From NCBI GenBank assembly GCA_964551375.1, contig CAZKBG010000001.1:867329-899328 (forward strand): DNA of 32,000 nucleotides. The letters are read 5' to 3'. Positions 10,908-13,800 of the stretch are shown here, piece after piece. The notes under the pieces were generated by a model. The model had not been told where the DNA came from. It made no database searches and saw only the letters and a list, made by a program, of their open reading frames with translations. A program made the position numbers and the translations under genes. Source of the DNA: an uncultured archaeon (lineage in GTDB: Archaea; Iainarchaeota; Iainarchaeia; Iainarchaeales; JAAZKV01). Each line of letters opens with the position of its first letter. Positions within the stretch are counted from its first letter, which is position 1.

Positions 10908-11174
10908 TTACTTTTCCCAAGGGGAGCGTTCATTAGTCTCTGAAATAACTCTTGAGCGTGCCATTTCGGACTGTACTTTTCTAAGTTTTGCCTTCATATC
11001 GGAAAGACGATAATTCATCTCTTCAATTTCGGCTTTAATATCAGCTTCATAATTACTGTCAGCCAAATTAAGCTTCTTTCTCCTGTCCAAATTCTTCTGC
11101 AGACTGTCTCTAAGCCTTACAGCCTTCTCGTACTCGTACTTTAAATCTTCCATTTCAGCAATACTTGCGCTCAT
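10908..11174 (-). CDS. Small coiled-coil hypothetical protein (88 aa)
   Basis: The track start is GTG 11183. ATG 11174 is preceded by GGGTGTGGTG. The sequence is heptad-like and charged (EMEDLKYEYEKAVRLRDSLQKNLDRRKK...). No family recognised. Confidence 0.5.
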   Translation of the reverse strand: MSASIAEMEDLKYEYEKAVRLRDSLQKNLDRRKKLNLADSNYEADIKAEIEEMNYRLSDMKAKLRKVQSEMARSRVISETNERSPWEK

Positions 11175-11270
11175 ACACCACACCCTGTATTATTGATACG
11201 GCTAAACTCTTTAAAAAACATAATACTAAGGCAAAATTTGCTCCTTTTTAGCCCAAATTAAATAAACACC

Positions 11271-11280
11271 TTTAAATATA
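11271..11280 (+). promoter_or_regulatory. TATA box upstream of the Kazal-protein gene
   Basis: TTTAAATATA, centred ~27-30 nt upstream of the TTG 11303/ATG 11306 start cluster. No SD is present. Confidence 0.35.
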
Positions 11281-11305
11281 ACAAAAGTCCATAGAGTAAC
11301 TATTG

Positions 11306-13558
11306 ATGGGCATGAAAATTAATCGAGTTTTTGCAGTAGCGCTAATAATGTTTTTAATTTCCGCGGCAGTTTTTGCTCCCGGAACTGATTCTAATACCCA
11401 GACTTCAATTTACATGCCTGAAAGGGTTTGTACAGCTGATTACAATCCCGTGTGCGGAATGGTAAAAACATTCGCCTGCCCTGAATGCACAGGAGATGCA
11501 TGCGGCGGATGCGTTTCATCTTATGATTACAAAACTTACTCAAACAAATGCATGCTTGAAGCAGCAGGCGCAGAAATGATATCCTCTGGAGAATGCCTTA
11601 CTTGCACTCCTGAAGGACAGTCAGTTCCTGTTTATCCAGGCGCAAGATGCTGCGCAGGACTCACTGCAATACCTCCAACTAAACTAAACTCAGTGGGGGA
11701 TTATGAAGTTGACAGAATGATTGTAGGCACAGGCGGGATATGCTCAAAATGCGGAAACGGGGTGTGCGAAGCATGGGAAAACAAAGCAAACTGCCCAAAA
11801 GACTGCCTAGTTTCTGATGTTAATTATATTAAAGAAACAGTAAAATGCGTGTTCAACGGAAATGTTGAAGGTAAAAATCAAAAATGCTACCAAGCTCTTA
11901 ATACAGCGGCTGAATACGAAAACGGATGCTACGGAATAAACGACTGCACAGCTGCAATCGGAGGCACAATCGGCACTTCACAGCTTTGGAAAAGCTCATG
12001 CCTTGGAGAAGCAAAAGTAGTTCTTGACGGGAAAGGACAGGAAATTGAATTTAATTGTAAAACAAATGCATGCGTGTGCACAATGGAATATATGCCTGTG
12101 TGCGGGATAAACGGAGTAACTTACGGAAACAAATGCGGAGCAGCATGCGAAAATATTGAAATAGCTTATGTTGGCGAATGCAAACAAGCTCCATGCGCAT
12201 GCACAAAAGAATATGCTCCAGTATGCGGAAAAAATGGAGTAACTTACGGAAACAAATGCATGGCAGCATGCGAACATGTTGCAATAGCTTACACCGGCGA
12301 ATGCAAAAATGAATGCGCTGAAGATAAAGATTGCATGGAATCAAGCTGTCCTGACGGAAGCAGAATACATCAGACTTGCGAAGTTGGAAGATGCATTTGG
12401 AAAGCAAAATGCGCACAGTCTCAAAGCGATTTTTACAAATCAGCATTCTGGAAATGCTCAAACGGAAAAGAATTCAGCCAAGTTGGAGAAAAATGCCTTC
12501 CTTACGCTGAATGGAAAAATATTGCAAGATTATCATGCGAAAAACTTACTCCTAAATGCGCGGGCGGAAGCACCGGCGGAGGAAGCGGGTCGGTTATGCC
12601 AAGCGAAACAAACTCGGTTTCAACAACATCAAACTTTGTAGCAATTGTTGCAGTGGATGGCAATGCTGTTAGTTCAAACAGTATCACAACAAGCAACACA
12701 ATTAATGACATTGAAGCAATAGAGCCAATTTCAACTACAATAGAACCGGTTGAGCCAGTTGCAATGCCTCCTTTTATTGACAATAAATGCATAGGCGCAG
12801 AAGCTGTGACTTTAGTTGACTTGCAGGTAAAAGAACAATGCGAAGTAGGATGCAAATATTATGTTAATGCAGACGGATGCAAAATAAAAGACTGCGGAGC
12901 AAGGGGAATTGAAAACAGCTGCGTTGCACAAGCATGCAAAGAACAGCCAATTGAAGATATTAAAAATTTAAAAGAAAAATGCTACGCAAATAACTGGAAA
13001 GTAGTTATAAAATACGATGGCAAATGCCCAACTTACCTATGCCTTGATCCAAATGATGCTAACTCAATACAGCAAAACTGCAAAAAGCCGGAAGACTTAA
13101 GCGATAATGAAGAAAGATGCTCTAATTTGGGCGGAAAGTTCCTAACAAAAACAAACGAATTCGGATGCATAACAATTGCAGAATGCGTTGGAGTAAAACC
13201 AACAGTTGAAACAAACACAACAACTACAATCAACAAAGCAGTTTTGACTGACTCTGGAAAATTACTTGAACTTGCGCTAAAACTTGAAAGCCTAAGAATT
13301 GACCTAAAAGCAACTGCTGCAAAAATAAAATCAATCGCAAATTATTACAGAGAACAAAACGAGCTTGAACAGGCCGCAAAGTTTGACAAAGCGGCTGAAC
13401 TGCTAAACAGCGCGGTTGTCAAAGTTGATTCAATCAAACAGGGAATAAAAGATAATATTAATAATTTCAGCGAAGAAGACGCAATCAGCGTAAGAGAAGG
13501 AATAAAAGAAATAAGAGAGAATATACTAAAAGAAGTAATAATCACAATTTTAGGGTGA
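11306..13558 (+). CDS. Secreted cysteine-rich protein with tandem Kazal-type modules and C-terminal coiled coil
   Basis: Signal peptide MKINRVFAVALIMFLISAAVFAPG. Two canonical Kazal cores: CTMEYMPVCGINGVTYGNKCGAACENIEIAYVGEC and CTKEYAPVCGKNGVTYGNKCMAACEHVAIAYTGEC. One split Kazal-like module lies near the N-terminus (CTADYNPVCG...KTYSNKCMLEAAGAEMISSGEC). A CGNGVCEAWENKANCPKDC motif and many further Cys are present. The last ~110 aa are Cys-free and coiled-coil-like. Confidence 0.85.
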   Translation: MGMKINRVFAVALIMFLISAAVFAPGTDSNTQTSIYMPERVCTADYNPVCGMVKTFACPECTGDACGGCVSSYDYKTYSNKCMLEAAGAEMISSGECLTCTPEGQSVPVYPGARCCAGLTAIPPTKLNSVGDYEVDRMIVGTGGICSKCGNGVCEAWENKANCPKDCLVSDVNYIKETVKCVFNGNVEGKNQKCYQALNTAAEYENGCYGINDCTAAIGGTIGTSQLWKSSCLGEAKVVLDGKGQEIEFNCKTNACVCTMEYMPVCGINGVTYGNKCGAACENIEIAYVGECKQAPCACTKEYAPVCGKNGVTYGNKCMAACEHVAIAYTGECKNECAEDKDCMESSCPDGSRIHQTCEVGRCIWKAKCAQSQSDFYKSAFWKCSNGKEFSQVGEKCLPYAEWKNIARLSCEKLTPKCAGGSTGGGSGSVMPSETNSVSTTSNFVAIVAVDGNAVSSNSITTSNTINDIEAIEPISTTIEPVEPVAMPPFIDNKCIGAEAVTLVDLQVKEQCEVGCKYYVNADGCKIKDCGARGIENSCVAQACKEQPIEDIKNLKEKCYANNWKVVIKYDGKCPTYLCLDPNDANSIQQNCKKPEDLSDNEERCSNLGGKFLTKTNEFGCITIAECVGVKPTVETNTTTTINKAVLTDSGKLLELALKLESLRIDLKATAAKIKSIANYYREQNELEQAAKFDKAAELLNSAVVKVDSIKQGIKDNINNFSEEDAISVREGIKEIRENILKEVIITILG
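12071..12316 (+). repeat. Tandem 123-bp (41-codon) duplication encoding the two Kazal modules
   Basis: Unit 1 is 12071-12193 and unit 2 is 12194-12316. A 24-nt identical core GGAGTAACTTACGGAAACAAATGC occurs at 12112-12135 and 12235-12258. Confidence 0.85.
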
Positions 13559-13563
13559 AATGA

Positions 13564-13800
13564 ATGAAAAATAAAATAATTGCAATAGTTGCCGCAGTAA
13601 TCATAGTTGTTGTCATAGCTGCAGGAATACTAATCGGACTATCTATGATGAATAACACCCCAAGCGGCGGAGACACAAGCGCAAAACTTACTTCAGAAGG
13701 CGATGTGAGCAGAACAATTGACGATGTGGGCTCTGATATTTCAGGAATATCAGGCACCTTAGATCAAATAGATTCAACGTTTTCAGACTCCAATGCTTAA
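13564..13800 (+). CDS. Small membrane-anchored protein (78 aa), coupled to the Kazal-protein gene
   Basis: The ATG lies 5 nt after the upstream TGA, with GGGTGA as SD. N-terminal TM IIAIVAAVIIVVVIAAGILIGL is followed by a Ser/Asp/Gly-rich tail. Confidence 0.55.
   Translation: MKNKIIAIVAAVIIVVVIAAGILIGLSMMNNTPSGGDTSAKLTSEGDVSRTIDDVGSDISGISGTLDQIDSTFSDSNA

Follow-up and report, generated by a model that had tools for sequence, protein, structure and literature searches.

The gene at 11306..13558 on the forward strand of a 32,000-nt stretch of archaeal DNA (the window) encodes a secreted, Cys-rich protein of 750 amino acids (P0001) with three Kazal units, named A, B and C. From sequence comparisons and structure models we consider it probable (about 60%) that this protein inhibits foreign serine proteases in the canonical manner, with three heads displayed at the cell surface on a scaffold specific to the lineage. 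The domain type itself is known and common in the lineage. New are a Kazal variant with a hairpin arm, a dark scaffold and an obligatory small partner gene. The gene, its export signal and its Kazal units are the following.

11306..13558, forward strand: P0001 gene, secreted Cys-rich Kazal-bearing protein of 750 aa, from translation of the open reading frame (ORF), Pfam and relatives
11306..11377, forward strand: predicted Sec-type signal peptide, residues 1-24, with basic n-region, 17-residue hydrophobic core and VFA before PG
11426..11596, forward strand: Kazal unit A, residues 41-97, two-disulfide and GmSPI-2-like, loop C42-T-A44(P1)-D-Y, without Cys1 and Cys5
11459-11533, forward strand: four-Cys insert in the hairpin turn of unit A, residues 52-76, part of unit A
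12065..12181, forward strand: Kazal unit B, residues 254-292, Cys 256/258/266/277/281/292, non-classical C-x-C ... C-x3-C, P1 Met260
12188..12304, forward strand: Kazal unit C, residues 295-333, Cys 297/299/307/318/322/333, P1 Lys301

By hidden Markov model (HMM) scores, sequence matches in the PDB and overlay of the model on LDTI, the identity of units B and C as Kazal-type inhibitor domains (PF00050/PF07648, MEROPS I1) is secure. For the whole protein Pfam Kazal_1 gave 56.6 bits (E 2.7e-15; cut-off 21) and Kazal_2 an E-value of 2.4e-7. Examined in isolation, B (12065-12187) and C (12188-12310) reached 36.7 and 37.9 bits with Kazal_1, each above the cut-off. The HMM search thus bore out the two adjacent 41-residue Kazal units that a first-pass annotation, made from the sequence alone, had proposed. 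Both units contain six Cys in the non-classical spacing C1-x-C2-x7-C3-x10-C4-x3-C5-x10-C6; the arrangement C-x-C ... C-x3-C marks the non-classical Kazal class (PMC3082530). The consensus given before described the units correctly apart from its end, which reads C-x(8)-GEC (10 residues from Cys5 to Cys6) and not x(10)-GEC. In the PDB the B/C pair matched ovomucoid (2.3e-14), RECK (4.6e-11) and the Anemonia elastase inhibitor (AEI, 1y1c; 1.7e-9), and further infestin, LDTI and rhodniin. The full-length AlphaFold model was built on a 13-sequence alignment and had a mean predicted local distance difference test score (pLDDT) of 63.9. Modelled unit C was overlaid by Foldseek on LDTI of the trypsin complex (1an1_I) with a TM-score (TMt) of 0.90, a root mean square deviation of 0.7 A over 38 columns and 50% identity. 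Other matches of this unit were 4hgu (TMt 0.86) and 2kmo (TMt 0.79), in agreement with the Kazal fold of beta-hairpin, short helix and C-terminal strand.

The reactive loops are C-T-M-E-Y in B and C-T-K-E-Y in C, and the spacer Asn of T-Y-G-N-K-C is kept in both. The two repeats adjoin, span 41 residues or 123 nt each, and share 78% of their nucleotides and 71% of their amino acids (29/41). This pair fits a recent duplication followed by a change of specificity, as far as the sequences tell. Directly adjacent Kazal units were seen only in this protein and its closest relative. Comparison of the codons of B and C gave 12 non-synonymous and 5 synonymous differences, including the loop positions P4, P1 and P3'.

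Unit A is a probable Kazal domain with a hairpin insert. Its sequence frame consists of the loop C-T-A-D-Y-N-P-V-C-G and the tail K-T-Y-S-N-K-C ... G-E-C. C42, C50, C82 and C97 (Cys2, Cys3, Cys4 and Cys6) are kept, with no Cys at C2-2 or at C4+3/+4. The turn comprises 25 residues with 4 Cys versus four residues in a normal Kazal domain, a net insert of about 21 residues, and the four Cys probably form a disulfide-stapled arm. For this third, N-terminal unit the first-pass annotation had described the usual flanks and a 20-residue Cys-rich insert in place of the DG-x-TY turn. Both Kazal flanks around a Cys-rich insert were found, but the T-Y is retained and the insert adds a net of about 21 residues. 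The best solved relative was GmSPI-2 (2m5x/4hgu; phmmer E 2.9e-5), with both flanks aligned. GmSPI-2 is a four-Cys, two-disulfide Kazal protein with high activity against both subtilisin and proteinase K (PMC4169406). In CrSPI-1 a two-disulfide and a three-disulfide head bind two subtilisins (PMC3082530). An isolated model of unit A from 5 sequences (pLDDT 73; the other four models 37-47) showed a long beta-hairpin, a helix and a strand (beta-beta-alpha-beta). For any solved Kazal domain, no description of a four-Cys hairpin insert of about 21 residues was found.

All three units have the canonical loop, with Cys at P3, Thr at P2, a variable P1, Glu/Asp at P1' and Tyr at P2', and the spacer Asn before Cys4. 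Inspection of P1, suggested earlier, revealed three different residues: Ala44 in A, Met260 in B and Lys301 in C.

The natural variation of the units was examined in a family set of 37 unique proteins. From these, 56 Kazal-like units were pulled by a regular expression for the loop plus Cys4; they stem from related proteins and are not independent, and the counts are descriptive. Cys1 (two residues before Cys2) and Cys5 (3-4 residues after Cys4) were both present in 33/56 units, both absent in 23/56, and never found one alone. Such covariation is expected from a 1-5 disulfide. In more than half of the units (32/56) the hairpin is extended at one and the same position by a long insert. The number of Cys in it was 4 (24 units), 2 (5 units) or 0 (3 units) and never odd, which fits an internally stapled arm. 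P1 was the most variable loop position with 3.23 bits over the 56 units (M, K, T, A, Q and others). It lies in a frame of P2 Thr (46/56), P2' Tyr (55/56) and spacer Asn (55/56), the conservation of which is in part imposed by the collecting expression; the variability of P1 is not so imposed.

The protein would be exported by the Sec pathway and be a fully disulfide-bonded surface protein in two halves, a variable N-terminal and a conserved C-terminal one. The N-terminal half would present three Kazal heads: A with two disulfides and the stapled hairpin arm, and B and C as a recent tandem with three disulfides each. Since the canonical loop Cys-Thr-P1-Glu/Asp-Tyr-x-Pro-Val-Cys and the spacer Asn are kept in all three, A, B and C are most likely tight-binding inhibitors of the Laskowski mechanism (substrate-like), directed against proteases of S1 and/or S8, each with its own specificity. 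Their targets would be proteases from a host, from competitors or from the community around the archaeon, whose surface the protein would protect. The C-terminal half, with FYK module, glyco-type linker, Cys-rich alpha/beta region and three-helix bundle, may serve as a lineage-specific display scaffold, held at the membrane by a small lipoprotein-like partner.

The Kazal gene is native to a small-genome archaeon of the Iainarchaeota (DPANN). The genome comprises 1.09 Mb and is 93% complete, and the gene lies on a 946-kb contig together with archaeal split rpoB and rpoA. In the window itself, split rpoB (B''/B'), split rpoA (A'/A''), an AMMECR1-Memo-radical-SAM trio and a minimal [FeFe]-hydrogenase are encoded. 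The same gene order was found in five archaeal metagenome-assembled genomes: AMMECR1/Memo/radical SAM, a small coiled-coil ORF, the Kazal gene, a small membrane protein and RsmB/F. The native origin follows from this contig, from the synteny and from the scaffold, which is present in 18/21 other genomes of the genus.

Kazal domains had been regarded as uncommon in prokaryotes in the first-pass annotation. This does not hold for the phylum, where Kazal_1 exceeded its cut-off in 64/215 genomes and 28/79 genera, including 15/21 other genomes of the genus; the 14 control genomes gave none. Other architectures of the phylum are small lipoprotein-anchored multi-Kazal proteins. Such proteins are already in public records: one relative is named 'Kazal-type serine protease inhibitor family protein [archaeon]' at NCBI, and arCOG10350 is an existing Kazal category (PMC6697440). 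A survey of 2026 listed Kazal among the fold groups unique to DPANN, as unverified and possibly due to horizontal gene transfer (HGT) or classification artefacts (PMC13607799). In an HGT phylogeny of 106 Kazal units over 37 columns, 5/103 branches were supported and no transfer direction or donor was resolved. The family units clustered loosely in this domain tree, interleaved with bacterial and eukaryotic units. Outside DPANN, the Nitrosopumilus-type proteins P0120, P0112 and P0117 combine rhodanese and Kazal in a different archaeal architecture.

The further features of the locus are listed below.

11271..11278, forward strand: TATA-box-like TTTAAATA, 27 nt before the ATG, putative, read directly from the sequence
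11597..11812, forward strand: Cys-rich module, residues 98-169, 8 Cys, with CC pair and CGNGVCE...NCPKDC, in several relatives; no Pfam match; pLDDT about 70-78
11822..12061, forward strand: beta-sandwich, residues 173-252, 6 Cys, model strands 174-250, pLDDT 75-85; no Pfam match
12308..12412, forward strand: small Cys knot, residues 335-369, 6 Cys, kept in P0004 and P0007; no Pfam match
12425..12559, forward strand: 'DFYK-A-W-C-NGKE' module, residues 374-418, beta-hairpin plus helix, invariant columns in alignments A1 and A2, pLDDT about 80
12560..12799, forward strand: Ser/Thr/Asn/Gly-rich linker, residues 419-498, pLDDT 25-40, no secondary structure, length varying among relatives
12800..13195, forward strand: Cys-rich alpha/beta region, residues 499-630, 13 Cys, two helix-plus-hairpin repeats, Cys nearly invariant in A1, A2 and A3
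13223..13555, forward strand: Cys-free C-terminal three-helix bundle, residues 640-750, helices 650-683, 687-716 and 723-749, pLDDT about 90
13564..13800, forward strand: presumably co-transcribed partner gene, 78 aa, 5-nt gap after the Kazal gene, N-terminal membrane anchor

The 750-aa ORF starts with ATG; an alternative start is the TTG at 11303. The position of TTTAAATA suggests a leaderless or short-leader archaeal transcript. On the reverse strand (10908-11183) and divergent from the Kazal gene, a coiled-coil ORF of 91 aa was found, which looks cytoplasmic and is without Pfam match. It is kept at the same position in L003, L004 and L006 (91-117 aa, with a shared EDxKYEYEKA start).

The signal peptide is the sole hydrophobic segment of the protein, forms a helix at residues 5-21 in the model and has the end VFA-x-DSN, common to the relatives; its cleavage site is a predicted one. 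All 58 Cys lie within residues 42-627. A Sec-signal protein with dozens of Cys had been expected from the sequence, and the hydrophobic N-terminus and the Cys count agree with this. Likewise, the CGNGVCE...NCPKDC motif (residues 149-167) and the Ser/Thr/Asn-rich linker, disordered in the model, are present as described. The C-terminus is indeed Cys-free and helical, but the model shows a three-helix bundle and no long coiled coil. The beta-sandwich showed a weak Foldseek likeness to sandwiches of the CBM20/CBM41 type (E 4e-3, TMt 0.46).

The DFYK module is the start of the C-terminal core that defines the family (residues 365-750); it is doubled in P0007 and P0010. The following Cys-rich alpha/beta region contains a weak internal repeat, and the three-helix bundle is kept to the last residue in relatives. 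With a profile of the core, 338 representatives were found at E<=1e-3 and 77 at E<=1e-30 among 1.84 billion. The profile matched 37/215 genomes of the phylum. Kazal units occur in 30/35 close and in 15/113 distant members of the scaffold family. The distant members are almost all dark to Pfam: ten sampled proteins gave one Antistasin, one Thioredoxin and one PEGA. No relative of scaffold profile A2 was detected in the PDB (best E 0.61), and none of the scaffold sub-regions matched Pfam. Antistasin, a disulfide-rich family of serine protease inhibitors, was found on the distant scaffold member P0146. It also stands beside Kazal units in the metagenomic proteins P0043, P0088, P0089, P0093 and P0103. 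This co-occurrence hints that inhibitor heads are swapped.

The coupled small membrane protein noticed earlier was confirmed 5 nt downstream of the Kazal gene. The partners share a conserved acidic segment, D-x-S/G-T/S-D-I-S-G-I ... L-x-E-I-D (alignment A4). A lipobox Cys (FGC, SGC, LGC or IGC) is present in 14/16 unique copies. In the phylum all 30 full-length matches lie on the same contig and strand as a scaffold-family gene, within about 1.1 kb downstream of it. This also applies to distant families in which the large protein is free of Kazal units; thus the partner goes with the scaffold, irrespective of the Kazal heads. A further possibility, which we put forward as tentative, is a two-gene display cassette. 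The lipoprotein would tether the scaffold via the three-helix bundle, and interchangeable heads (Kazal units with hypervariable P1 and disulfide-stapled hairpin arms, distantly Antistasin) would act together as a shield against proteases or, offensively, block proteases on the host surface. Two observations speak against such a tether. The partner in the window has no Cys and a plain N-terminal membrane anchor in place of the lipobox [LVI][ASTG][GA]C, and the acidic charge of the partner has no counterpart in the C-terminal bundle, whose net charge is about 0. The partner of the closest relative (L003:6896-7135) has lost the lipobox Cys too. Both copies have a longer, plain hydrophobic stretch in its place and seem to have gone over from a lipid to a transmembrane anchor.

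Formation of disulfides outside the cytoplasm is plausible, since the genome encodes a DsbA-like Thioredoxin_4 protein (E 1.1e-32) with lipobox LLGC and CPFC site (L050:1426-2118, reverse strand; G000:C1:240506-240967). This lipoprotein is a candidate extracytoplasmic disulfide oxidase for the many Cys-rich secreted proteins of the genome.

Several points weigh against an inhibitory function of the three units or against parts of its derivation. Kazal modules can be non-inhibitory, and agrin, RECK and SLCO transporters were among the Kazal matches. Unit A reached 19.9 bits with Kazal_1 (11417-11599, in two pieces), below the cut-off of 21, and Foldseek with its isolated model retrieved no Kazal fold (best E 2.7). 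The model of unit B stayed below a pLDDT of 50, probably for want of a second protein with this unit in the alignment. The disulfide topology 1-5, 2-4, 3-6 is a predicted one, deduced from Cys covariation and the LDTI overlay, and the loop frame owes part of its conservation to the way the units were collected. VKOR was considered as disulfide-forming partner, and none was found in the genome. Moreover, the organism looks anaerobic, with the [FeFe]-hydrogenase gene in the window. The main rival reading, clearly less probable than inhibition, gives the Kazal units a structural or adhesive role like that in agrin, follistatin/SPARC or RECK; the protein would then be a disulfide-rich adhesin with variable N-terminal modules binding host surface molecules. 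Protection against proteases and a structural adhesin were the two roles suggested in the first-pass annotation. A conserved anchor with variable, fast-evolving, insert-bearing heads and a CBM-like beta-sandwich would suit an adhesin, an adhesive type IV pilus cluster is also encoded in the window, and RECK and agrin-like matches are non-inhibitory Kazal proteins. The small share of distant scaffold members with Kazal units points to a role of the scaffold independent of inhibition. In contrast, the full canonical loop and spacer Asn in all three units argue for inhibition, as does the hypervariable P1 in a fixed loop frame, which is typical of working canonical inhibitors and would be surprising in a module of purely structural role. 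Moreover, LDTI, AEI, GmSPI-2 and infestin, the solved proteins nearest to the units, are all active inhibitors.

The targets of an inhibitory protein are a related question. In animals, Kazal inhibitors commonly regulate proteases of the same organism, and the protein could control the zymogen or the activity of a secreted serine protease of the archaeon itself. Of the 64 Kazal-positive genomes of the phylum, 16 encode S8 proteases. One relative from the same family-level group has matches to Peptidase_S8 (188-328) and Kazal_1 (2633-2710) within one 959-aa open frame (G143:C68), possibly a fusion of protease and inhibitor or an arrangement akin to a propeptide. However, the profiles Peptidase_S8, Trypsin and Trypsin_2 gave no match in the 93%-complete genome, with positive controls in 8 to 12 of 14 genomes. 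S8 is absent from 48/64 Kazal-positive genomes of the phylum and from 13/16 of the genus, and phylum-wide, genomes with Kazal tend to be without S8 (odds ratio 0.48, uncorrected for relatedness). An endogenous protease target is thus unlikely in this genome and the targets are presumably foreign; control of an own protease is a very improbable explanation and was rejected for this genome. Even less credit is due to the idea that the Kazal region stems from contamination of the assembly or, as a functionless region, from a single recent transfer out of a eukaryote. Kazal domains are best known from animals, the closest solved structures come from invertebrates, and the survey mentioned above flagged Kazal domains of DPANN as possible HGT or artefacts. 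Nevertheless, this explanation is effectively refuted by the 946-kb archaeal contig and the shared gene order in five archaeal genomes, by the occurrence of Kazal_1 in 28/79 genera with family units loosely together in the domain tree, and by an intact open frame whose Cys covary as a functional fold requires.

Inhibition of foreign serine proteases by the three heads can be compared with known systems. LDTI (1an1/1ldt/2kmo) and AEI (1y1b/1y1c), assigned to MEROPS I1 and PF00050, share with units B and C the Cys pattern, the size of 40-41 residues and the loop C-T-P1-E-Y-x-P-V-C-G. Unlike these free inhibitors of 4-5 kDa, B and C are archaeal and part of a 750-aa multidomain surface protein. 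Unit A resembles the two-disulfide Kazals GmSPI-2 and CrSPI-1, as it lacks exactly the Cys1-Cys5 pair and matches GmSPI-2 in both flanks. It differs from GmSPI-2 by the four-Cys insert of about 21 residues in the hairpin turn, and was assigned by sequence. The Kazal surface proteins of DPANN and of the candidate phyla radiation (arCOG10350), widespread in ultrasmall prokaryotes, are likewise secreted or lipid-anchored, disulfide-rich mosaics with compact Kazal heads; the subfamily described here differs from them by its own C-terminal scaffold and the obligatory small partner gene. Oomycetes and apicomplexans secrete soluble multi-Kazal effectors that block host proteases, with demonstrated targets. 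The proposed logic is the same, Kazal heads exported against foreign subtilisin- or trypsin-like proteases by an organism with a life on or close to others. In contrast to these soluble effectors, the archaeal heads would be placed on a probable surface scaffold. In the literature searched, no biochemically characterised archaeal Kazal inhibitor was found.

The locus is a clean case, with three heads of different P1, a natural Cys covariation supporting the fold and a genome without S1/S8 match. Activity of the heads against microbial subtilisins or trypsin-like enzymes would make protease warfare a concrete part of the survival of ultrasmall archaea on or near other cells. The heads would then also be a source of small, stable, disulfide-rich inhibitor scaffolds, including the new hairpin-arm variant. 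The dark scaffold with its 338 representatives and the obligatory partner open a line of enquiry of their own, into the mounting of proteins on the surface of DPANN cells. The two-gene cassette, if true, would be a prokaryotic counterpart of the Kazal effectors of oomycetes, and DPANN archaea would have in it their first functional inhibitor system, situated at the symbiont-host interface.

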